A stretch of 55,925 nucleotides of DNA from an uncultured archaeon (lineage in GTDB: Archaea; Asgardarchaeota; Lokiarchaeia; Sigyniarchaeales; SOKP01). The DNA lies in assembly GCA_964388035.1 (NCBI GenBank), contig CAYLZE010000022.1, positions 1-55,925 on the forward strand, read 5' to 3'. This document shows positions 37,036 through 50,601 of this stretch, one piece after another. Position numbers and translations under genes: made by a program. Within the stretch, counting starts at the first letter, position 1. Each line of letters begins with the position of its first letter. A model generated the notes under the pieces. That model worked only from the letters and a program-made list of their open reading frames with translations. It did not search any database and had not been told where the DNA came from.

Positions 37036-37620
37036 ATGACGTTAAAGCAATCATATCCACTAAATCATAGAGAATTTGTTGTATTGGGGCTCGTTGGGGA
37101 AGAACCAAGTCATGCGTATAAAATTGACAAAAAAATTGATGATAGGGGCATGAGAGAGTGGACAAGCATAGGTACCTCTTCAATCTATAGTGACTTAAAT
37201 ACTTTAGAAATAAATGGATTAGTTGAATCTTATACCGAAGAACATGATAACCGTATTCGCCGAGTTTATAAAATAACGGATTTTGGTTGGAAGATTTTAG
37301 AGGTTAAAATATTTACAGTTCTTAAAGAATTCCAAGGGAAGAACGATGAGGATTTTTATGTTGCTTTTTCAATGTTGCCCGTTTTGAGTAAAGAAAAGCA
37401 AATGGAAGCAATATCGCATTCAATAAACATAATGAAATCACATGTTAAAGAATTAGAAGAAATGCTTGAACAAAATTCGAGCATGCCGCTAAATGTGACA
37501 GGATTATTCATTCATCCCATAAAAATACTTGAAACAGATATAAATTTTTTGGAATGGTTAATGAACCAGATTGAAAACGGAAGAGGGACAGTCTCCCCTA
37601 ATGATCATGTTAAAGAGTAA
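37036..37620 (+). CDS. PadR-family transcriptional regulator
   Basis: VLGL...PSHAY, SSIYSDL..LE..GLV, RRVYKITDFG. Confidence 0.9.
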   Translation: MTLKQSYPLNHREFVVLGLVGEEPSHAYKIDKKIDDRGMREWTSIGTSSIYSDLNTLEINGLVESYTEEHDNRIRRVYKITDFGWKILEVKIFTVLKEFQGKNDEDFYVAFSMLPVLSKEKQMEAISHSINIMKSHVKELEEMLEQNSSMPLNVTGLFIHPIKILETDINFLEWLMNQIENGRGTVSPNDHVKE

Positions 37621-37638
37621 AGGAAGGGTGACAAAATA

Positions 37639-38769
37639 TTGAAGTATATGGTTAAGAATTTCAATCATCGTGTAGGATTTCATTGTGAATCGTCTGCGAT
37701 GAGAGATTTATTCGAATTTCACGGGTTTCCAATGTCAGAAGCAATGGCATTTGGTCTGGATGGCACGCTAGGCTTCATATTTTATGATTCTTCCACACGA
37801 ATGGCAGATGGGGAAAAATTAGATACACCCTATTTCGTTGGAGGAAAAGGGGGAACGCTTGATCCTAATTCACTCGCATGTCGTCTTTTAGGTATAACCT
37901 TACGCAAGCAATCATTTACCAGTGCGGATAAGGGGTGGAATGAAGCAAAGACGTTAACTGAAAAAGAAATTCCACTCATTCTACAGGTTGATTTGGGATT
38001 CTTACCCTACATACAGGAGCAAGAAGAGATACATTTTGGTGGCCATACCATTACTCTCGCTGGATTTGATGAAGAAAAAAATCTGGCTTATGTGGGCGAT
38101 ACTACCTATGAAAATTTCCAAGAATTAAGCATTGAAGATTTAAAAAAAGCAAGGAGTTCCATTCATGGTCCTTCATTTTTGCGTCCGAATAACGTGCAAT
38201 ATTCAATGAGTCGCCGCCCCGATGGAAAACATCCGCCTTTAGGGGCAGGGCTGAAATTAGCGATTCAAGAAGCCGTGAATCACATGCTAAGACCTTCCGT
38301 GAACTATATCGGAATCCAAGGATTAAAAAAGTTTACCGAATCGATACTTAATTGGAAAAATGAGTTAAAAGGGATAGTTAAGGATCCTTATAGCGATAAA
38401 CAACTTCCCTTAGCTCCCTTAACTTTTGAGTTGCTTCATGGATTCATTGAAACATGGGGAACGGGTGGGGGCTTGTTTAGGAAGCTATTTGCAAACTTTC
38501 TTGAGGAAGTAAAAATCCATCCTGAGGTTAGAAGTGGGATTCGAGCATGGAACGCCATGGAGATAGAACACTTGGAAGAAGTTGTTCCAATGATAAAGGA
38601 ATCCGCTCAAAATTGGACGCAGATTGCCACTTCCTTAAAACGTGCAGTGAATGATTATGGTGAGAATTGTGTCCAGGATATAGATTTAAATGAGATATCA
38701 AATATTGCTTACCAAATACTTCAGATTGAAGAAATTGCCTTTAAGAAATTAGCGGAAATTAAATTATGA
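37639..38769 (+). CDS. BtrH-N/DUF4872 (papain/C39-like Cys-His) family protein
   Basis: HCESSA, SEAMAFGL, HFGGH...LAGFD, GTGGGLFRKLF. Confidence 0.8.
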   Translation: MKYMVKNFNHRVGFHCESSAMRDLFEFHGFPMSEAMAFGLDGTLGFIFYDSSTRMADGEKLDTPYFVGGKGGTLDPNSLACRLLGITLRKQSFTSADKGWNEAKTLTEKEIPLILQVDLGFLPYIQEQEEIHFGGHTITLAGFDEEKNLAYVGDTTYENFQELSIEDLKKARSSIHGPSFLRPNNVQYSMSRRPDGKHPPLGAGLKLAIQEAVNHMLRPSVNYIGIQGLKKFTESILNWKNELKGIVKDPYSDKQLPLAPLTFELLHGFIETWGTGGGLFRKLFANFLEEVKIHPEVRSGIRAWNAMEIEHLEEVVPMIKESAQNWTQIATSLKRAVNDYGENCVQDIDLNEISNIAYQILQIEEIAFKKLAEIKL

Positions 38770-38779
38770 GGTATAAATA

Positions 38780-39124
38780 TTGAAATCCAGGGAAAATCGA
38801 GATTTGGACAAAGATAAATTAGAAATGACCGTAATGCCATGTGGGATTTATTGTCCGGGCTGTCTGGTCTATATGAAAGGAAAATGCCCCGGTGGTTCTA
38901 AAGGTTGTAAAAAATGCAAGACGATATATGAATGTGCGAAAAAAAAGAATATTAAATATTGTTTTGAATGTAATGCTAATACAGTTTCTTTTCCATGCGA
39001 GCGGTTCAAGCAATTCAATGAGACTTGGAAAATGTATGGTCAAAATTTAATTGAGAATCAATTATTTATCAAAGAGCATGGAATAGAAGCCTTTTTAAGT
39101 AAGTTTAGGAGACAAAAGTTATGA
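38780..39124 (+). CDS. DUF3795 Cys-rich Zn-binding protein
   Basis: PCGIYCPGC, C.G, C....C, CFEC, FPC, NLIEN. Confidence 0.8.
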   Translation: MKSRENRDLDKDKLEMTVMPCGIYCPGCLVYMKGKCPGGSKGCKKCKTIYECAKKKNIKYCFECNANTVSFPCERFKQFNETWKMYGQNLIENQLFIKEHGIEAFLSKFRRQKL

Positions 39125-39555
39125 AAGAGATTAAAGATGTAAGCGAAAAAGATTTAATATCTCACTGTGGTTTGTATTGCGGGGCTTGTCGAGCGTATTT
39201 GTTAGAAAAGAAGAATTTATTTGCACAAAAAGGATATAAGAGAGGATGTAAGGGTTGTATTACTCAGAATAAAAACTGCGTACACATAAAAAAGGGTTGT
39301 AAATATTTAAAAAATGGAGAGGTTCATTTCTGCTTCGAATGTGAAGAATTTCCATGTCAAAAAATTGAAAGATTAGATCATCGCTATAAAAAAAAATATG
39401 ATGTTAGTCTAATAGATAATCTTAAGAGAATCAAAGAGATTGGCATAAGAGAATGGTTGAGGGAACAAAAAAACCTCTACACTTGTCCAAAATGTTCGGG
39501 AGAGATTTGCGTACATGATGCGGAGTGCTTCGATTGTGGATATCAAATACTATAA
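39121..39555 (+). CDS. DUF3795 Cys-rich Zn-binding protein with C-terminal Zn ribbon
   Basis: CGLYCGAC, CKGC, CFECEEFPC, CPKC..ICVH...CFDC; ATGA overlap with the previous gene. Confidence 0.82.
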   Translation: MKEIKDVSEKDLISHCGLYCGACRAYLLEKKNLFAQKGYKRGCKGCITQNKNCVHIKKGCKYLKNGEVHFCFECEEFPCQKIERLDHRYKKKYDVSLIDNLKRIKEIGIREWLREQKNLYTCPKCSGEICVHDAECFDCGYQIL

Positions 39556-39704
39556 TTTAAAAAAATGAATATCAAAAATATGGTTGTAGAAAATGACGAG
39601 ATTAATTAATGATGATTTCTAGCACATCTACAATCTTAGGATTATGCTCGGGATTAGACTTGGAAAATTATATAAAAATCTATATTATGATGAGGTATTA
39701 ATTC

Positions 39705-42209
39705 TTGAATTTTATAAAGGTTAGAGGAGCAAGAATACATAATCTTAAAAATATTGATGTAGACATCCAAAAGGGAAAATTAGTCCTAATAACGGGAGTT
39801 TCGGGAAGCGGGAAAAGTTCATTAGCTTTTGATATTATCTTTGATGAGGGGATGAATCGATACTTACAATCCATTGGATTTCCTCCGAAATTTGAGGACG
39901 AGAAACCTTTTGATTTAATCGAGGGGTTGAGCCCGACGGTTGCGGTAGAGCAACGGACTACACGGGTTTTTAATCCTCGCTCGACCGTAGGAACCAAAAC
40001 CAAATTATATGATCTTCTTAGGATGCTATACGCTACTGAAGGCGTCATACCTTGCCCCATTTGTAAGATCCCCGTTAATGAAAATCTCGAATGCGATATG
40101 TGTGGAATGAAGGTAGATAAATTGCAGATCAAGCATTTTTCTTTTAATGAACCTTCAGGAATGTGCTTGAATTGTAAAGGGCGAGGATATACCATGCAAT
40201 TCACGGAAGAGATGATTGTTCAAGATTATGATCGCAACTTGTTAGAAATTACGAAAGCAGGTTCAGGGTGCTTTGCGGATCAACTAAGATTCGTGGAGCA
40301 ATTACCTCGGTTCTATGATTTTGACATCAATACACCTTATAAAGATTTACATGATTCTGTTAAAAAAGTATATCTCTATGGGAGTGGAAAAAAACTGCAA
40401 TTTAATTGGGAATCCAAACGGTTCAGCGGAGAATTAGAACGAGAATTTGAAGGGATCATTCCTCATCTGGAGAGAGCAGTGTCAGATAGTAAGAGTGCTT
40501 ACAGAAGGACTAAGATAATGAAGGACTACATGATTCAGAGAAAATGCGAAGAATGCCAGGATTTTAAAATCAATGATCGCGCGAGAGAAGTGAAAATTGC
40601 AGAAAAACATATCGGGGAACTGGCAATGATGACAATGGATGAATTAATCATATTCCTGCAAGGCTTAAATGAACAACACGTGAAAACCCCCCAAGGGAGA
40701 GCGATGCGAGATGAGATTCTACTAAGATTGAATAACATGGTAAAAGTAGGCTTGGCTTACTTGCATTTGAATCGATCTCTACCAACCTTGAGCGGGGGAG
40801 AATTACAAAGATTATCATTAATGACCCACCTGGAAGGAGGATTAGACTCCCTTATTTATGTTTTAGACGAACCTAGTATGAGCTTGCATGAACGAGAAAA
40901 GGATTCCTTAATTGAAATATTAAAAAGGCTCAAGAATTTGGGTAATACCATTATTATTGTGGAACATGATAAACGCTTCATTGAGATTGCAGATGAGATA
41001 ATAGATATTGGACCAGGTGCGGGAGTTCACGGGGGAGCAATCGTATATCAAGGTGATTTGAAAGGGATTTCTCAAATTACTCAATCCCATACGGGACACT
41101 TTCTCGTTGGGAATTTAAAACTTCCAAAAACCCATGAAAGGAATGAGAAGAATATGGATAAACCAACAAGCTACATAACAATTAAAGACGCTCGAACAAA
41201 TAATCTTAAAATTGATGAAATTAAGATTCCCCTCGGGATGATGGTGGGCATTGCGGGAGTTTCGGGAAGCGGGAAGAGTTCCTTAATCCTAGATACCCTC
41301 ATACCGTTAATAAAGCCTCATTTTAAAAGAGGGGCAAATAAGGATAAAAAAAGTGCAGACCCTGATGAGGAAGAGGAGGAGGAAGAAAATGAGAAAGAAT
41401 TACAAGATTATTCCGGAGCAATAAAAGGATGGGAAAATATTGATGGTGTCGTGGTAGTAAATCAAAGTCCAATCTCTCGGGTGAGAACTTCCACTCCTTG
41501 CTCATATATTAGGATTTGGGATAAAATTAGGGAACTTTTTGCCAAGACATCGGATGCTAAACAGCAAAAGTTATCGGCGGGCCATTTTTCCTATAATTCT
41601 GAAAAGGGGCGTTGTCCCGCATGTAAGGGCCAAGGAGAGCAAGATCTTCAAATCTCTTTTCTTAATAGTTTTACAATTCCTTGTAAAGAATGTAAGGGTT
41701 CGAGATATAAACCAGAGATTTTAGAGATTAAATATAAAGGCAAATCCATAGCTGATGTATTAAATATGACTGTCTCCGAAGCTCTAAAGCTATTCAGTTC
41801 TCAGAATAGCATTGCGAACGTGCTTAAAATTTTAGAAGAGATTGGAATGGGATATATTACACTGGGACAACCTTCTCCAACCTTGAGTGGGGGGGAAGCT
41901 CAGAGAGTCAAGTTAGCAAAGGAATTAGGGAAGACTAGAAGGGGTAATTCTCTTTATATTTTAGATGAGCCCACTGTGGGTTTAAGTTTTTATGATACGG
42001 TCAAATTAATGGAATTGCTGGATAAACTCGTTCAAGACGGAAATAGCGTGGTAATAATTGAACACGATCCAGAAGTATTATCATTTACAGACTATATTAT
42101 TGAGTTAGGGCCAGAAGGAGGACCAAAAGGAGGCGAGATCATTGCAACGGGAACGCCAGAGGAAATTAAAAAGAATAAAAATTCCAAAACGGGACCATAC
42201 TTAAACTAA
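39705..42209 (+). CDS. uvrA: UvrA-family ABC ATPase lacking the UvrB-binding domain (class II/DrrC-like)
   Basis: GARIHNLKN, two GVSGSGKS, LSGGE x2; CPIC and CDMC only 9 aa apart. Confidence 0.9.
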   Translation: MNFIKVRGARIHNLKNIDVDIQKGKLVLITGVSGSGKSSLAFDIIFDEGMNRYLQSIGFPPKFEDEKPFDLIEGLSPTVAVEQRTTRVFNPRSTVGTKTKLYDLLRMLYATEGVIPCPICKIPVNENLECDMCGMKVDKLQIKHFSFNEPSGMCLNCKGRGYTMQFTEEMIVQDYDRNLLEITKAGSGCFADQLRFVEQLPRFYDFDINTPYKDLHDSVKKVYLYGSGKKLQFNWESKRFSGELEREFEGIIPHLERAVSDSKSAYRRTKIMKDYMIQRKCEECQDFKINDRAREVKIAEKHIGELAMMTMDELIIFLQGLNEQHVKTPQGRAMRDEILLRLNNMVKVGLAYLHLNRSLPTLSGGELQRLSLMTHLEGGLDSLIYVLDEPSMSLHEREKDSLIEILKRLKNLGNTIIIVEHDKRFIEIADEIIDIGPGAGVHGGAIVYQGDLKGISQITQSHTGHFLVGNLKLPKTHERNEKNMDKPTSYITIKDARTNNLKIDEIKIPLGMMVGIAGVSGSGKSSLILDTLIPLIKPHFKRGANKDKKSADPDEEEEEEENEKELQDYSGAIKGWENIDGVVVVNQSPISRVRTSTPCSYIRIWDKIRELFAKTSDAKQQKLSAGHFSYNSEKGRCPACKGQGEQDLQISFLNSFTIPCKECKGSRYKPEILEIKYKGKSIADVLNMTVSEALKLFSSQNSIANVLKILEEIGMGYITLGQPSPTLSGGEAQRVKLAKELGKTRRGNSLYILDEPTVGLSFYDTVKLMELLDKLVQDGNSVVIIEHDPEVLSFTDYIIELGPEGGPKGGEIIATGTPEEIKKNKNSKTGPYLN

Positions 42210-42258
42210 ATTGATATAGAATAAATTAGATATTGAGTGTTAACTAAAAGAATTATTC

Positions 42259-45200
42259 ATGAAAATCAAAATAAGAGGGGCTCGGGAACATAATTTAAAA
42301 AGTGTGGATGTTGATATATCCCCGGGGCTCACGGTGGTGACTGGTGTCTCAGGCTCAGGTAAAACATCTCTCATCTTTGATACGCTATATAATGAAGCAA
42401 GAAGGCGCTTCATGGAAGCTTTTATGGTAAGCAAAGAGCAACTTAAATTGAATCCCGCAAAAGTAGATTCCATTTCGGGACTAGGTCCTGTTATTGCCTT
42501 GGAACAAAATTTGCTAAATAGAAATCCTAATTCCACTATAGCTTCTGCTTCTGGTCTTCTCCCTTTTTTGAGACTTTTGTATGCTCGATTCGGAGAGCGC
42601 AAGTGTCATGCATGTGGAGAATCCTTATCTATCCTCGATGAAGATAATATTATTTCGATGATGGAAGAATTAGCTTGCACAGAGAAAGTTGAAATTCTCG
42701 CTGTATTAATTAAACAAGTAATAGGATCTCACCGCACATTAATTAATTTCCTCGAAAACCAATTTGATAGACAAAAAATACTGATTGATGGGAAACCTTT
42801 AAAATCAAGTTCCTTGAATCCATTTGAAGCCCACGATATCATGATTCATGTAGGGGATATTGATAAAGATTTTAGTGCCATTGAAATCAGAAATTTAATT
42901 GATGGTATTTCGGCATTAGGGGCAAGTTCCATTAACCTAAAGGGAAAATCAATAGAGAAAGCAGTTGCATTTCAACCATACTGTGTGAATTGTGGAACAT
43001 GGCTAGAGAAAGTGGAACCCACGCATTTTAACCGTAATTGTCCCTATTGCAAGGGAAGTGGTTGCAAAAAATGTAATCAGACAGGCTTGCATCCTTTAGC
43101 ATCTAGCATCTCTTGGTTAGGTTTATCATTTCCTAATTTTTTAAGTAAGTCCATTAAAGACTTATTTGATCAATTTTCTAAAAATTCATTACCGGCTTCT
43201 AAGAGGTTAATTGAAGAAATAAGAAGAAGATTGAAAGTATTAAATGAGGTGGGGTTAAGCTATTTATCCTTAGATCGTATCTCACCATCTTTATCTCGGG
43301 GCGAATCTCAGAGAGTTCGTTTAGCTATCGTATTAACAAGCAAGCTTGAAGACATTATTCACGTACTAGATGAACCCACGATTGGTCAGCATCCTTACGA
43401 TGTGCAGCGCTTATTACCGATTTTTACTAATCTTGAAGGACCGGTGATTTATATTGAGCATGATAGACAAGCAGCTGCGTTCGCAGATCAAGCTATTGAT
43501 ATAGGTCCAGGTGCCGGTGTTATGGGGGGAAGTATCATATTTTCCGGAACTCCAGAAGAACTATGGAGAGCTAATACTCCGACGGGGAGATACTTTAGTT
43601 TAAGAAAAAAAATAGCACTTCCTAAAAGTCACTGCGCTCCACAATTATACATAAACATAAAAGGAGCGCATAAAAATAATTTAAAAAATATTGATGTTAA
43701 TTTCGCGTTAAATAGAATAAATGTAATAACTGGACCTTCCGGTTCAGGCAAGAGCACCTTAATCGAGGAGGTGTTATATCCCTCCTTAAAAGAAGGGAAT
43801 CCGGTGGGATGCAATTCGATAGAAGGTCCAAAGATACAACCAATATTAGTGAACCAAGAACCCATAGGAAAGAATCCTCGTTCAAATCCTGCTACTTACA
43901 CTAATATTGCTGATATAATTCGAACTTTATATGCGAAAGTCACGGGATATCAAGCCACGTATTTTTCTTTCAACACAAAAAGAGGGGCTTGCCCTACATG
44001 TAATGGGATGGGAGCCATTGAAATAAAAATGCGTTATTTACCTTCTACTTGGTTAACATGTTCAGATTGTCGGGGTAAAAGGTTCATGGATGAGATCCTT
44101 GATGCCAAGGTTCAATTTGGTGATAAATATTATTCTATTGCGGATTTCTATGACTTATCCATTTCTCACCTCAAAGAATTGTTCAAGAATGAAACGAGAC
44201 TTCCGGCAAAGGATCTGAAGAGCATTAAAAAAATGTTAAGTGCCTTGGACGATATCGGGTTAGGTTATCTATCCTTGGGACAGCCATCCCCTACTCTCTC
44301 AGGGGGAGAAGCTCAAAGAGTAAAATTATCTAAATTTTTAGGGAAAAAATCCCTTCAGAATCAATTAATAATATTAGATGAACCTTCCACGGGGCTACAT
44401 CCCAAGGATTTGGCGGGACTTTTAATAATTTTAGACCGTTTGATAAAATCGGGAGCCACTATAGTCATAGTAGAACATAACCTAGATATCATCCGTTTTG
44501 CGGATTGGATCATAGATCTTGGGCCAAATTCAGGACCAGATGGAGGGAATTTAGTATTTCAAGGTCCTCTACAAGGTTTGGTTGATAATGAAAAATCCTT
44601 GACTTCCATTGCTTTAAAAAACGAAGATTTAATTACTCCTCTCCCAAATAAGGATAGAAAAAAGCGAGAACCCTCGACCCATATAACCATTGAGAACGCT
44701 TCCATCCACAATTTAAAATCTCTAGATGTCAAGATTCCGAAAAATAAAATGACTGTTGTCACGGGAGTTTCGGGGAGTGGAAAATCAAGCTTAATTATCG
44801 ATACCTTAGAAAAAGAAGCTAGAAAGAGATATTTGGAATCCTTATCGATGTATGAGAGACAAGGAATAAAGGAAAGCTCCGAGGCTCAAGTAGGAAAAAT
44901 ATCCGGATTAGGGATTACTGCATTGATAAATTCCGAAAAAATTTCAAGCAAATGGTTTCTAAACGTCCGACACACGATTGGAATAGCTACGGAAATCTCT
45001 CTTCATCTGGCAAATATTTTTTCTTTTTTAGGGGAATTAAAATGTTCTAATTGTGGCACAAAAATGATTCGAAAAGAGAAATGGATATGTCCTAAGTGTG
45101 AATATTCTAGGCCTATTGCACAATCAAAACATTTTTTATCATTTAATTATTCTGCAGCGTGCTTGAAATGCCATGGAGTGGGTTTTTTGCAAGTACCTAA

Positions 45201-47115
45201 TCCCAATAAACTTATCATAGAACCAAACAAGCCATTATGTGGAGGTGCCATGTACTCTCCGGGCTTTTTTCCTAAAGGATACTTATGTAAGCCCTATAAT
45301 GGAGGATATTATATCGTACAAGCTTTAGCAGCTCGATATGGATTTGATCCCTTTAAGACTCCTTGGAAGGACATGTCAGAAGAAGTCAAGAACGCTTTTC
45401 TATTTGGGGATTGCAAACCATTACAAGTTACCTATGAAAATCGAAAGGGTCAAGTAACAGAAAAAGAATTAACTTATCTTGGATTTTATGGACAGTGGTT
45501 GAGAGATTGGGACACAGGAGGTACTTATACGGATACGAAACCTTGTGAAACTTGTAGAGGTTCTAAATTACGTTCAAAATATCTGGAAATAAAGGTGGAA
45601 GGATATAACATTCATGAATTAAGTGAATTATCCATTAAAGGACTCCATGAATTATTAAAAAATATCCCTAATTTGGAATCTGTACCCCTTTTTGTGAAGA
45701 ATAGTCTTGAAATTGTTAAAAGGCGTTTAGATTTTTTAATCAGAATAGGATTACACTACCTTAATCTAAATAGGGTGGTAGAAACTCTCTCGGCAGGAGA
45801 AGCACAGCGCATCCGCCTTGCAGGATTACTTGGAGGAAACCTCACATCTCTCACCGTGATATTAGATGAACCCACCCGAGGTATGCATCCGTCAGAAGTC
45901 AATTCTCTCATTGACGTTTTATTAGAACTGAGAGACAACGGAAACACGGTAATTGTAATTGAGCATGATCCTCTTTTCATGCGCAATGCAGATTACATTA
46001 TTGATCTTGGACCCGAAGCAGGTAAATTAGGGGGACAAATTGTTGCTGAAGGAATAATAAAAGAAATTATAGATGGAAAAACTTTAACTGGCATGTGGTT
46101 AAGTGGTAAAAAGAAATTTGACAAACCAGAAAAAAGAAGGATCCCAAAAACCTGGTTAACTATTCATGGCGCTAGAGAGAATAATTTAAAAGAGAGTACT
46201 GTAAAAATTCCCCACGGTGTCTTAGTTGGAATATGTGGTATCTCAGGAAGCGGTAAAAGTACTTTATTAATTGATACATTAGGTAGAGCATTAGCCCCTA
46301 TAAAACATACCACTTCAGTGGCTCGGGAAATATTAGAACCAGGGAAATATGATAACATCAAAGGAGAGCTGTCTCAGACGATAATTATTGACCAAGTTAA
46401 AGCAAAAATGGGTTCACCCTTAAAGTTTCTTGGTATAAAGAAAGAAATTTTAAAATTATATAGCGAAACCGAAGATGCAAAATTATTGGGAATTGATGAC
46501 AAGACCCTCTCCAAAGACTGCTCTACCTGTAAGGGAAAAGGATATATTAAAGTCGACATGCAATTTCTGCCAGATGTTATGGAGGAATGTAGTACTTGCA
46601 AGGGCTCTGGTTTTCTTCCCGAAGCATGGCAAGTGCATTATAAGGATGTGCCTTTACCTAAAGTAAATGAATTAACTATCGATGAAGCAGTTCTTCTCTT
46701 TAAAGAGAATGATTCAATTAAAAAAAAATTAGAAAATGCACAAAAAGTTGGGTTAGGTTATTTAACTTTAAATCAACCAGCAAGAGAACTATCTGGTGGT
46801 GAAGCTCAGAGATTAAAAATAGTCAATGAATTAAGTAAAGCAACGAAGAAAAAGACTTTATACATTCTCGATGAGCCTTCTATTGGTCAGCATTTAGAGG
46901 ATCTTTCAAAATTGATAACAACCCTTCAATTATTAGTTGATAAAGGGAATTCTGTCGTGTTGATTGAACATCATCCACACTTACTTTTTTCTTGTGATTG
47001 GTTGATAGAATTAGACGACGGCAAAGTGGTTGCTTCAGGACCTCCAGAGGTCATAGCAAATTCAGAAACGCCCACGGCTCCATTTCTAAAAGAAATCATG
47101 GAGGGTAAAGCTTGA
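42259..47115 (+). CDS. uvrA: Double-length (tandem-fused) UvrA-family ATPase, 4 NBDs
   Basis: Four Walker A (GVSGSGKT, GPSGSGKS, GVSGSGKS, GISGSGKS) and four signatures (LSRGE, LSGGE, LSAGE, LSGGE). Confidence 0.9.
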   Translation: MKIKIRGAREHNLKSVDVDISPGLTVVTGVSGSGKTSLIFDTLYNEARRRFMEAFMVSKEQLKLNPAKVDSISGLGPVIALEQNLLNRNPNSTIASASGLLPFLRLLYARFGERKCHACGESLSILDEDNIISMMEELACTEKVEILAVLIKQVIGSHRTLINFLENQFDRQKILIDGKPLKSSSLNPFEAHDIMIHVGDIDKDFSAIEIRNLIDGISALGASSINLKGKSIEKAVAFQPYCVNCGTWLEKVEPTHFNRNCPYCKGSGCKKCNQTGLHPLASSISWLGLSFPNFLSKSIKDLFDQFSKNSLPASKRLIEEIRRRLKVLNEVGLSYLSLDRISPSLSRGESQRVRLAIVLTSKLEDIIHVLDEPTIGQHPYDVQRLLPIFTNLEGPVIYIEHDRQAAAFADQAIDIGPGAGVMGGSIIFSGTPEELWRANTPTGRYFSLRKKIALPKSHCAPQLYINIKGAHKNNLKNIDVNFALNRINVITGPSGSGKSTLIEEVLYPSLKEGNPVGCNSIEGPKIQPILVNQEPIGKNPRSNPATYTNIADIIRTLYAKVTGYQATYFSFNTKRGACPTCNGMGAIEIKMRYLPSTWLTCSDCRGKRFMDEILDAKVQFGDKYYSIADFYDLSISHLKELFKNETRLPAKDLKSIKKMLSALDDIGLGYLSLGQPSPTLSGGEAQRVKLSKFLGKKSLQNQLIILDEPSTGLHPKDLAGLLIILDRLIKSGATIVIVEHNLDIIRFADWIIDLGPNSGPDGGNLVFQGPLQGLVDNEKSLTSIALKNEDLITPLPNKDRKKREPSTHITIENASIHNLKSLDVKIPKNKMTVVTGVSGSGKSSLIIDTLEKEARKRYLESLSMYERQGIKESSEAQVGKISGLGITALINSEKISSKWFLNVRHTIGIATEISLHLANIFSFLGELKCSNCGTKMIRKEKWICPKCEYSRPIAQSKHFLSFNYSAACLKCHGVGFLQVPNPNKLIIEPNKPLCGGAMYSPGFFPKGYLCKPYNGGYYIVQALAARYGFDPFKTPWKDMSEEVKNAFLFGDCKPLQVTYENRKGQVTEKELTYLGFYGQWLRDWDTGGTYTDTKPCETCRGSKLRSKYLEIKVEGYNIHELSELSIKGLHELLKNIPNLESVPLFVKNSLEIVKRRLDFLIRIGLHYLNLNRVVETLSAGEAQRIRLAGLLGGNLTSLTVILDEPTRGMHPSEVNSLIDVLLELRDNGNTVIVIEHDPLFMRNADYIIDLGPEAGKLGGQIVAEGIIKEIIDGKTLTGMWLSGKKKFDKPEKRRIPKTWLTIHGARENNLKESTVKIPHGVLVGICGISGSGKSTLLIDTLGRALAPIKHTTSVAREILEPGKYDNIKGELSQTIIIDQVKAKMGSPLKFLGIKKEILKLYSETEDAKLLGIDDKTLSKDCSTCKGKGYIKVDMQFLPDVMEECSTCKGSGFLPEAWQVHYKDVPLPKVNELTIDEAVLLFKENDSIKKKLENAQKVGLGYLTLNQPARELSGGEAQRLKIVNELSKATKKKTLYILDEPSIGQHLEDLSKLITTLQLLVDKGNSVVLIEHHPHLLFSCDWLIELDDGKVVASGPPEVIANSETPTAPFLKEIMEGKA

Positions 47116-48146
47116 CCTGGATACCATTATTACTCACCGATCCTTCTGCTTGTCTAAGATACTTAGTATTAAAGGATTTGCTTGGAAGATCAGAAAATGA
47201 TTCAGAACTCCAAGAATTTTGTGAATTAAGGCCCGAAGATCCTCTTATCAAAAATCTTGAAGAACTTCAGCAAAACAATGGCGCTTGGGAGTCCGACGGT
47301 GTTTCAATAGTTGGGAGTGGAAATATCCTATATTCGACTTCGATGGCATTACAAAGATTGGGATATCTACAAATCGAGAAAGATCATCCCATGATACAAA
47401 AAGCAGCGGAATATATTTTTTCTAAACAACGGGATGATGGTTCTTGGCCAATGCCTGGGAAAAAAGAATTGGATGAGGAAGAAGTAGGATATCAAATGAT
47501 GCCCATCCAAACTGCCATCCCACTATTGGGGTTGGCAATGTGCGGGTATTACTCAGATAAGAGGGCGGAAAAAGCATACGAGTGGTTACTTAAGCAACGA
47601 TTAGAGGATGGAGCATGGCCAGTGGGTATTGCTTCAGGAAATTATGGAGGAATTGCAGGTTATAGGCGAATTGCTCATTCACGGTGGGGGTGCAGATCCA
47701 ATACTTTAGCGGTTCTATCTTGTCTTGCATACCATCCTAAGAGAAAGGCAAGCAATGAAGCGCAAAAAGCACTTGACTTGATTTTAGGAACCAAGATCTT
47801 TTTAAGGAATACAATTGGCTTTAATATCGCGAGATTGATCGGATTGGAGAAATCTATTGGAAGAATAACCTTCATGGCTAGATTTGACATGGCTCAAATT
47901 CTCGATCTATGTTGGAGAGTTGAAGCAAGTAAGAATGATGTTCGAATCGAAGAATTCATCAACTTTGTTAAAGAGAAGCAAGGAAAAAATGGAATTTGGG
48001 AATACTTGCCTTATCCAAGAGCCTCGCGCTGGATTACATTCGATTTATTGCGTACTTTTTCCAATTTGGACGATAAAGAAGATTGGATATCTTTTGAGCC
48101 CTCTACTCCGTTTAGTTCTTATTTAAAGAAAAAATTACGATTTTAA
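47112..48146 (+). CDS. Prenyltransferase/squalene-oxidase (QW) repeat protein
   Basis: QQNNGAW, QRDDGSW, QRLEDGAW, QGKNGIW; 4-nt overlap with the uvrA stop. Confidence 0.8.
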   Translation: MTWIPLLLTDPSACLRYLVLKDLLGRSENDSELQEFCELRPEDPLIKNLEELQQNNGAWESDGVSIVGSGNILYSTSMALQRLGYLQIEKDHPMIQKAAEYIFSKQRDDGSWPMPGKKELDEEEVGYQMMPIQTAIPLLGLAMCGYYSDKRAEKAYEWLLKQRLEDGAWPVGIASGNYGGIAGYRRIAHSRWGCRSNTLAVLSCLAYHPKRKASNEAQKALDLILGTKIFLRNTIGFNIARLIGLEKSIGRITFMARFDMAQILDLCWRVEASKNDVRIEEFINFVKEKQGKNGIWEYLPYPRASRWITFDLLRTFSNLDDKEDWISFEPSTPFSSYLKKKLRF

Positions 48147-48743: not shown

Positions 48744-48800
48744 TTTAAATAATCCTTAATATTCTTATATTCACCATATGAGATAAAATCATATGGAGGA
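48744..48800 (+). promoter_or_regulatory. TATA-like box, 8-bp hairpin and SD for the small peptide gene
   Basis: TTTAAATA 48744-48751; CCATATGA 48774-48781 / TCATATGG 48789-48796; GGAGGA 48795-48800. Confidence 0.55.
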
Positions 48801-48805
48801 ATCCT

Positions 48806-48955
48806 ATGTCAAAAAAAGTAGTTGTGAAGAAAGAAGAGGTTAAAAAACCTGATGTAAAATCAGCAGCTAAACCAGCTGGGCAACCCGCTCCAAAACCGGT
48901 TGCAAAACCAACTCCAAAAAAGAAGTATGAAGACGAAGACGATGATGATTATTAA
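48806..48955 (+). CDS. 49-aa Lys/Pro-rich peptide with acidic C-tail; candidate substrate/precursor for the SET and ATP-grasp enzymes
   Basis: MSKKVVVKKEEVKKPDVKSAAKPAGQPAPKPVAKPTPKKKYEDEDDDDY*; GGAGGA 5 nt before ATG; T8 tract downstream; below the ORF-track cutoff. Confidence 0.8.
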   Translation: MSKKVVVKKEEVKKPDVKSAAKPAGQPAPKPVAKPTPKKKYEDEDDDDY

Positions 48956-48996
48956 ATACTTTAGATCATTTAAATTAATGAAGTCTTCATGAAAGG

Positions 48997-49004
48997 TTTT
49001 TTTT
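48997..49004 (+). terminator. T8 tract, possible archaeal-type terminator/attenuator after the peptide gene
   Basis: TTTTTTTT 41 nt after the peptide stop, preceded by the palindrome ATGAAGtCTTCAT. Confidence 0.35.
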
Positions 49005-49065
49005 GAATTCTAATCGCTTTATAAAGGTTATTATTATTAATCTTGTAGCTTTAATAAAAGAAATT

Positions 49066-49539
49066 ATGTTTTATAAAAGGAGAGCTAACGAAAATTATCC
49101 TTCGAAAGTAAGTAATTGTTCCTATGGAAAATGTTTAAAGGCAACGAAGAATATTCCATCCAAAACACTTGTTCAGATATTTAAAGGACCTATTACTTCT
49201 TGGAGAGACATTACTGAAGAACATATAAATTACGTATTATGGGTGGATGATGCGAAATGGATTATCCCATTAACGAGTGCACGATATATTAATCATTCCT
49301 GTGATCCAAATTGTATAGTAGATGAACGACTAAATGTAATAACAACACGCCCCGTACAAAAAGGAGAAGAATTAACAATTACTTATAACGTGATAGATGG
49401 AGCAGATCCGGGTCTTTGGGATAGCCGTTGGAGTTTTCAATGTAAATGCGGCGCTCAAAATTGTCAAGGATATATCAATAAATACATAACCGGAGATGGA
49501 AAACCATTAATTACTAAATTAAAAACGAATGACTTTTAA
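49066..49539 (+). CDS. SET-domain protein-lysine methyltransferase with post-SET Zn motif
   Basis: YGKCLKA, ARYINHSCDPN, GEELTITY, CKCGAQNCQGYI; ATG 49066 preferred over TTG 49003. Confidence 0.93.
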   Translation: MFYKRRANENYPSKVSNCSYGKCLKATKNIPSKTLVQIFKGPITSWRDITEEHINYVLWVDDAKWIIPLTSARYINHSCDPNCIVDERLNVITTRPVQKGEELTITYNVIDGADPGLWDSRWSFQCKCGAQNCQGYINKYITGDGKPLITKLKTNDF

Positions 49540-49608
49540 AATATATTAATTATGTAAATCTTAATTATCAAATTTACATTAAGAGTATATTTTAAGAGAT
49601 TCGTTTTC

Positions 49609-50601
49609 ATGAAAAAGATAGTAATTTTATATTATGATAAAAATTATCCTTTAAAGATAGACAATTTCAAAATTCCAATCGATGAAGAAACCGATTTTGA
49701 GGATTTTATTATCGAAATTAATCAGTTAAGAAAAAACTATGATATTACTTATCTTAACAATCATGAAGAAAGTCTACATTATTTCTGTAAGAATAAAAAT
49801 AATATTGATCTCGTTGTGAATCTAGCCGATAATGGTTTTAATAATGATTTGGATAAGAATGGCTTTTTTATTGAACTATTTAATTATCTTGACATTAAGT
49901 TTACGGGAAGACAAGCTAATAACGTGGAATTCTTTGAAAAAAAAGATTTAATGCATTATTTTTTAGAATACATGGGTATTGAAGTACCTAAGACCATTTT
50001 TTATTATCCTGGAATGGATTTAACATTTTTAAAAAAAAAACTTTCTTTTTTAAATTACCCTATCATAATAAAGGTAGGAAAATCAGGAGGATCCTTAACC
50101 TTAGACGTTAACAGTATTTGTTCTTCCTATCGCTCAATTATTAATAAGATAAATGAAATAGAGAAATCTCTAGGAAAAAAAAACGTGTTGCTTCTACAAG
50201 AATTTATAGAAAATGCAAGAGAATATTCTTCGTTCCTAATTGGAAATCAAGAATGTAAGGATATTCAAGCGTTTACCATTAAAGTCACACCAAATAAGTT
50301 TTATGATTATGAACAAAAGATGTCAAATATTCTTCCCGCTGGAGATTTCTATAAAGAATGCGATTTAACCGCAACGTTTCTAAAAGAAGTTGAAAAAAAA
50401 TTGATTTTTATTAAAAATGTGACCGATTGTAAAGATTATGTTCGATTTGATTGGTTGATTGATGAAAAAAATCGTTTTTTTTTAATAGACTTTAATGCTA
50501 ATCCTGCTTTTGATTCGGAATTAGTAAAAATGATTAATAGATCATTTGATAATGATAATATTTTACTTGGGTATGTGATTGAATCTGCTTTAAACAGATA
50601 A
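49609..50601 (+). CDS. ATP-grasp ligase (Ddl-like fold, not canonical Ddl)
   Basis: LDIKFTG, YPIIIK..KSGGS, LQEFIE..REY, YDYEQK, DYVRFD, IDFNANP. Confidence 0.88.
   Translation: MKKIVILYYDKNYPLKIDNFKIPIDEETDFEDFIIEINQLRKNYDITYLNNHEESLHYFCKNKNNIDLVVNLADNGFNNDLDKNGFFIELFNYLDIKFTGRQANNVEFFEKKDLMHYFLEYMGIEVPKTIFYYPGMDLTFLKKKLSFLNYPIIIKVGKSGGSLTLDVNSICSSYRSIINKINEIEKSLGKKNVLLLQEFIENAREYSSFLIGNQECKDIQAFTIKVTPNKFYDYEQKMSNILPAGDFYKECDLTATFLKEVEKKLIFIKNVTDCKDYVRFDWLIDEKNRFFLIDFNANPAFDSELVKMINRSFDNDNILLGYVIESALNR

Follow-up and report, generated by a model that had tools for sequence, protein, structure and literature searches.

A Lys-rich, acidic-tailed peptide gene and its SET and ATP-grasp neighbours in a Lokiarchaeia gene neighbourhood tied to polyamine genes

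The stretch of DNA considered here (the window, 55,925 nucleotides of contig CAYLZE010000022.1 from an uncultured archaeon of the Lokiarchaeia) carries, between positions 48,744 and 50,601, a short peptide gene followed by genes for a SET methyltransferase and an ATP-grasp ligase. The names of close homologs (Promethearchaeota) likewise mark the genome as that of a Lokiarchaeon. The question raised by this locus is whether the three form a candidate new peptide-modification system, i.e., a precursor with two tailoring enzymes, as the original prediction had it, or have come together for another reason. We found that the peptide, the SET enzyme and the ligase are members of a previously undescribed neighbourhood of Lokiarchaeia genes with ties to polyamine genes, and that a classic antibiotic-type peptide pathway is unlikely. 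Neither the peptide family nor the combination of peptide, SET enzyme and ligase was found described in the literature, of which a 2009 amidoligase survey (Iyer et al.) may yet contain it.

The peptide ORF (48806..48955, + strand) encodes 49 residues and had been missed in the list of open reading frames; the signals noted for it are present. A Shine-Dalgarno sequence, GGAGGA (48795..48800, +), is separated from the ATG by 5 nt, and a candidate TATA-like box, TTTAAATA (48744..48751, +), lies 62 nt 5' of the same ATG. The peptide, which is probably disordered, indeed contains the 13 Lys residues ascribed to it, together with 7 Pro; its head (residues 1-40) is rich in K, P, A and V with a net charge of +10, and is followed by the 9-residue acidic tail YEDEDDDDY. 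By hexamer coding score it ranks tenth among the 1508 small intergenic ORFs of the genome, alongside LysW and rubredoxins, and first among the 49 that have a strong Shine-Dalgarno sequence. Direct sequence searches with the peptide gave no match, but for a low-complexity query such blanks are uninformative, and the true homolog surfaced only via the neighbours of the SET gene. This homolog, of 44 residues, lies directly 5' of the orthologous SET gene in a second lineage (L433/L434; L433:163-711), in which the best-matching neighbouring genes show 55-73% identity to those of the window's genome. The two peptides share 35 of 44 residues (80%), with pN (0.12) below pS (0.34), and their tails differ by an indel; the upstream region, including the TATA-like box, aligns and is kept. 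A contig in run X10 is of the same lineage as L433, with an identical SET break, so it adds no independent support. The 49-residue peptide is a genuine gene. Elsewhere in this genome, another K/E/D-rich small ORF of 56 residues with a Shine-Dalgarno sequence (G000:C119:7512-7682) has neither a ligase nor a SET gene nearby.

A run of eight T (48997..49004, +), a candidate archaeal terminator with a counterpart of seven T at the equivalent place in L433, follows the peptide gene, and the SET gene has a TATA box of its own, TTTATAAA (49018..49025, +; 48 nt 5' of its ATG). Because the T-run is kept and the SET gene has its own TATA box, the genes need not share one transcript. A weak TATA-like box 75 nt 5' of the ligase ATG (49534..49540, +) may be due to chance in AT-rich DNA. 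This arrangement agrees with a reading in which the genes are loose neighbours: the peptide would be an independent small basic/acidic protein that binds nucleic acid, chromatin or cations, with a charge pattern like that of HMGN or prothymosin and a promoter and terminator of its own, and the SET and ligase genes would be mobile accessory genes in the same insertion. The HMGN/HMG14-17 Pfam profile gave no hit on the peptide at E <= 0.1, and the resemblance is one of composition only. The peptide is also more conserved (80%) than the SET protein (66%) and most neighbours, and it outlasts the SET gene in L433. We nevertheless consider such loose association rather doubtful, for reasons of gene clustering given below.

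The SET/post-SET methyltransferase gene (49066..49539, +; 157 aa) is complete and on the same strand, as had been stated. It scores 55.6 bits against PF00856 (cut-off 22.4 bits), and its best PDB matches are KMT2, SETD2 and NSD. Like the SET/post-SET lysine methyltransferases it has the RYINHSC motif, an E-L-T-x-x-Y segment (E102, with the catalytic Tyr at Y107) and the Zn-binding post-SET cysteines (C126, C128 and C133), all of which vary little or not at all among 18 relatives; unlike them it consists of one small domain. Phe39 occupies a position at which the YxG motif usually has Tyr. The subfamily occurs in 12 of 400 Asgard genomes, every one from Lokiarchaeia, and none was found in the 239 Asgard genomes beyond the 161 Lokiarchaeia. 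In L433/L434 the SET ortholog is broken (no in-frame ATG near the start, and a stop at residue 93), the peptide is intact, and in L433 no ligase lies downstream. In a contig of the window's own species (L181:286-729) a 31-codon deletion, either a real variant or an assembly error, removes the post-SET cysteines; L181/L216 belongs to the window's species (99.7%) and shows no selection signal.

The ATP-grasp gene (49609..50601, +; 330 aa) is also complete, but the comparison drawn for it with graspetide synthetases, RimK, LysX and TTL/TTLL did not hold. On the evidence of Pfam, NCBIfam, PDB profiles, ESM features and a confident structure model, the protein is classified as a stand-alone Ddl-type ligase. 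PF07478 is its only Pfam hit, the first 37 of 40 PDB profile matches are Ddl/Van ligases, and so are all of the top 50 Foldseek matches of the model (pLDDT 88.5). The RimK profile TIGR00768 scored 15.5 bits (cut-off 143.4), graspetide synthetases were absent from the PDB and top Foldseek matches, and TTL was found neither by profile at E <= 0.1 nor in the top 50 structural matches. The ligase shares with the D-Ala-D-Ala/Van ligases (PF07478; PDB 7u9k, 1ehi, 3r23) the fold (TM 0.66-0.77) and the ATP/Mg-site residues (K112, K155, S162, K237, R279, D281, N296). It differs from them in its low identity (11-21%), in the D-Ala motif LHG, which aligns to LAD, in Asp294, which replaces the usual metal-binding Glu in all stand-alone ligases, and in being without peptidoglycan context. 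A true D-Ala-D-Ala ligase (EC 6.3.2.4) was considered and rejected: the fold and ATP/Mg site agree, but the D-Ala motif is not kept and the score lies below every NCBIfam Ddl cut-off (TIGR01205, 57.8 bits versus 245.65). Ddl/Van ligases join small molecules.

The nearest family is a fusion of a class I methyltransferase with a Ddl-like ligase, about 645 aa long, whose ligase domain is 25-29% identical to the window ligase. The two have in common the motifs N-L-x-D-x-G-x-x-N-D and D-Y-x-R-F-D-W, and their genes share the same peptide family and the same SET subfamily as neighbours; in the window the adjacent methylase is a SET enzyme instead of a class I methyltransferase. The fusion is found in bacteria, methanogens and Lokiarchaeia, at no fewer than 582 loci, with 60-70% identity across bacteria and archaea. 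In the tree, its Lokiarchaeia copies show no long branch, whereas the stand-alone ligases form a clade restricted to Lokiarchaeia on a very long stem. Since this was a quick tree in which long branches meet, the stand-alone ligase may be derived from the fusion or be its sister. Given the long branch and Asp294, the window ligase may have a function different from that of the fusion. The fusion of this genome (L031:5079-7034 on G000:C16; 651 aa) has no peptide in its 730-nt upstream gap.

A conserved three-gene cassette would be expected to travel together, and this is not what we observed. Among 160 other Lokiarchaeia genomes, 11 contain the SET ortholog and 10 the stand-alone ligase, with no overlap, and the peptide is mostly absent: within 1.6 kb it was found at 2 of the 13 loci of the stand-alone ligase and at 1 of the 16 of the SET gene (L433, found later, adds one). 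G001, a genome of the same genus, has no such cassette beside tag (L412). The trio is not conserved as a fixed unit, and of the proposed new system what stands is the peptide as a genuine gene, its link to the SET gene in a second lineage and, as described below, the recurrence of such peptides beside homologous ligases. The gathering of the three genes is nonetheless probably not due to chance, and the loose-neighbour reading, to which the absences just listed would be natural, is set against the fact that homologs of all three genes independently cluster around the same fusion gene. The SET gene is directly 3' of the fusion in L045 (in the order peptide, fusion, SET) and in L182/L183, and a stand-alone ligase is directly 5' of it in L032. 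The fusion is present in 10 of the 11 SET genomes and 8 of the 10 ligase genomes, versus 83 of 160 overall, and in family f2 a fusion or SET gene occurs in G053 alone, which has both. Within genus g9, G009 carries the peptide, a stand-alone ligase, the fusion and one large gene as a block that is missing from the syntenic site in G026 and G033, the peptide being gained or lost together with the ligase genes (L032 vs L409, L410). In addition, from the genome-wide count of small ORFs with a comparable acidic tract (only 8 in 5.47 Mb), a strict acidic small ORF would be expected within 1.6 kb on either side of a given gene in about 0.5% of cases only. SET genes of different subfamilies also join the neighbourhood (L045, L182, L198, L351, L414, L416).

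The same data bear on the proposal of a new RiPP class with a graspetide-like product, cross-linked from Lys/Ser/Thr to Asp/Glu and methylated on Lys, which we regard as very improbable. Donor residues do precede acceptor residues in the peptide, and the small ORF is two genes away from an ATP-grasp gene; as in graspetide clusters (MdnB/C, MvdC/D), a small acidic, Lys-bearing peptide thus stands beside an ATP-grasp enzyme, by analogy only. The ligase, however, is of Ddl type and falls outside the graspetide/RimK clade, and the precursor is missing at most ligase loci (present at the 2 of 13). Nor is there a conserved protease or exporter nearby. The window peptide has no leader, with neither the Phhx(1,2)h motif nor a GG site; the absent motif is weak evidence alone, because only roughly half of the known precursors carry it (PMC8939145). 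Moreover, no conserved spacing from Ser/Thr/Lys to Asp/Glu was found across the 45 peptides of the family described below, the peptide survives the breakage of SET in L433, and the family exists in genomes that have no member of the ligase family.

About 45 distinct short peptides, mostly unannotated, were collected from Lokiarchaeia. They consist of a Lys-containing basic head and a D/E tract interspersed with W, Y or F, and they adjoin either the fusion or a pyruvoyl arginine decarboxylase with a SpeY-like paralog of deoxyhypusine synthase (DHS). At 11 of 20 and 8 of 13 Lokiarchaeia fusion loci (two partly overlapping sets) a small ORF of the strict acidic type is present within 1.6 kb on either strand, compared with none of 14 control SET loci. 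As the Lokiarchaeia genomes are kin, these counts of peptides, fusions and SET genes are descriptive and carry no statistical test, and presence or absence was taken from individual loci, profile searches of the genomes with peptides being insensitive. Since Lys-head, acidic-tail peptides recur beside homologous ligases, sometimes with the window's SET subfamily (L045, L182), the expectation that K-rich, acidic-tailed ORFs would be found near homologs of the two enzymes is borne out at the level of the family. A Lys occurs no more than 10 residues before the acidic tract in 43 of the 45 peptides, and 6 of 7 pairs have a pN lower than pS. Tract length and register vary freely, as does the C-terminal residue (Y in 15, D in 11, F in 10, E in 4). 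The last 13 residues of the window peptide resemble the family core (compare L424). Its homology to the family, as an atypical member, is likely rather than proven, because it has a longer head and a shorter tail. Several related small genes were noted: a 13-aa K/E peptide with a strong Shine-Dalgarno sequence, flanked by a frameshifted stand-alone ligase and a SET gene of another subfamily (L038:3643-3684); in genus g11, a protein of 110-148 aa that begins with a long stretch of KD/KE repeats and whose gene is divergent from the stand-alone ligase (L305:5213-5659, L306, L310, L219); and, in the one-contig 6.0-Mb genome G055, which belongs to another family, a basic-head, acidic-tail small ORF that overlaps the end of the DHS paralog (L356:6777-6911).

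The home neighbourhood of the peptide family is formed by the pyruvoyl arginine decarboxylase (PF01862) and the adjoining second DHS homolog, and it contains family peptides at 12 of 47 loci. Such peptides occur there in G001, G024 and G055 and also in the present genome: on C174 (L197:1278-3841 of G000) a 73-aa peptide with GPRKK and poly-D/E follows the two genes. The paralog is distinct from the DHS on C18 and, as a second DHS homolog beside an arginine decarboxylase, may correspond to SpeY. Several genera have the fusion, decarboxylase and DHS paralog inside a stretch of about 5 kb (L040, L052, L093, L115, L413-L419), and in L052, L093 and L413-L419 these genes are accompanied by a PAN-like ATPase, a MobA-like protein and, in some cases, a further SET gene. 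The wider gene context points to polyamine chemistry. Bacterial SpeY together with arginine decarboxylase converts agmatine to bis(guanidino)homospermidine (G44G), a homospermidine precursor (PMC13625781). The Lokiarchaeia neighbourhood is alike in its pyruvoyl arginine decarboxylase and second DHS homolog, but these genes are outside the window, and the known route (PMC13625781) includes no ligase, methylase or peptide. No conserved agmatinase was found in the neighbourhood. Tandem pairs of DHS-like genes stand beside the decarboxylase in many Lokiarchaeia (L318-L344), giving up to three DHS homologs per genome, and in several genera a PAN-like proteasomal ATPase is directly 3' of the fusion (L040, L052, L093, L413-L419).

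Outside Lokiarchaeia, 108 of 109 fusion loci are without such a peptide, the single small acidic gene being LysW-like, so the core chemistry of the fusion is independent of the peptide. The polyamine link is thin there (spermidine synthase near 6 of 139 loci, in related genomes), and SET genes occur near 8 of 139 loci, probably in one lineage. That the fusion mostly lacks the peptide, and has not changed in Lokiarchaeia, makes small substrates most likely, and the nearby polyamine genes suggest an N-methylated polyamine amide as the product. The reading that we favour, if tentatively, is therefore that the window genes are an accessory copy of a module whose product is a small N-methylated amide, probably one that contains a polyamine, and that the peptide is a disordered charged partner and possible SET substrate. 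The core of the module would be the fusion (on C16 here), with the window genes as accessory parts, and it would be tied to agmatine/homospermidine-type polyamine genes, namely the decarboxylase and SpeY-like paralog that on C174 accompany a second acidic peptide. With ATP, the ligase would activate a small acid (an amino acid) at its carboxylate and join it to an amine, most likely a di- or polyamine, which the fused methyltransferase and/or the SET enzyme would N-methylate. The peptide, transcribed separately, would not be a leader-core precursor; its acidic tract may bind or store the polycationic substrate or product, or scaffold the enzymes. The long K/P/A head and the conserved place before the SET gene make this extended Lys-rich head a plausible SET substrate. 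The linkage of the genes, their folds and the intact ATP/Mg- and SAM-site motifs are direct findings, from which we infer the mechanism; gene order among kindred genomes provides non-independent evidence for the module. As a whole, the system is most akin to orphan Ddl-type amide-ligase modules with a methylase.

The tight adjacency of the peptide suits a covalent substrate equally well. In such a scheme the ligase would amidate Asp/Glu of the tail with a polyamine or an amino acid, SET would methylate Lys, and the DHS paralog may aminobutylate a head Lys, giving a charge-tuned disordered polypeptide with a logic like that of tubulin tails or diatom silaffins. It deserves mention because no other reading accounts so simply for the peptides staying by these genes: the frequency of acidic ORFs near the fusion, the Lys just before the tract, the peptide-SET order kept in L433 and the K/D/E-rich ORFs flanking the stand-alone ligase (L038; L219, L305, L306, L310) would all fit. 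We judge it unlikely, since the fold of the ligase is that of Ddl and not of RimK/TTL, the fusion is no different in lineages that lack peptides, and the tracts and C-terminal residues vary freely. Furthermore, peptides are found in genomes without any member of the ligase family (G001, G024, G055), and in both other peptide-SET copies (the L433 truncation and the L181 post-SET deletion) SET is broken and the peptide intact. TTL/TTLL, and TTLL12, which unites a SET-like with a TTL-like part (PMC3520985), are analogies only, the window ligase giving no TTL profile match.

A carrier function like that of LysW/LysX, in which the ligase would load a small amine on the C-terminal carboxylate of the peptide, the amine would be methylated and a peptidase would free the product, appears improbable. 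Here too a small acidic peptide stands by an ATP-grasp gene, the C-termini of the peptides are acidic, and LysW-like proteins occur next to the fusion at two loci, L131 (PF21344) and L231, and in L362 close to the DHS paralog. The window peptide, however, has no Cys, LysW fold, zinc ribbon or conserved C-terminal Glu motif (it ends in DDDDY rather than EDWGE), no peptidase is conserved nearby, and the genome encodes its true LysW elsewhere (C75), as it does its RimK-family ligases (C14 and C39). The LysW-like proteins mentioned are Zn-ribbon proteins with acidic tails, and those near the fusion (L131:5570-5776 and L231) come from Chloroflexia and a metagenome contig.

The analysis uncovers about 45 mostly unannotated small genes of Lokiarchaeia and provides the widespread methyltransferase-ligase fusion with its first concrete partners, i.e., polyamine genes, SET enzymes and acidic peptides. 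The peptide is a candidate substrate for an Asgard SET domain and in this respect bears on the origin of eukaryotic lysine methylation; according to a 2026 preprint, Asgard histone tails are methylated, and orthologs of eukaryotic SET histone methylases were not found in its representative genomes (10.64898/2026.07.02.735847). A Lokiarchaeia system in which tiny disordered proteins are polyaminated or amino-acylated by Ddl-type ligases, methylated by SET or class I methylases and fed by the agmatine pathway is doubtful; if true, it would represent a prokaryotic counterpart of tubulin-tail and silaffin chemistry, via enzymes not known to modify proteins.

Two observations concern other genes. 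The assignment of a 369-aa neighbour to DUF155 was rejected, being without Pfam support. Just upstream of the peptide, SET and ligase genes, the window contains a co-oriented run (37036-48146) of genes for PadR, a BtrH-like protein, DUF3795, a UvrA-like protein (834 aa), a double UvrA-like protein (1618 aa) and a QW/prenyltransferase-fold protein.
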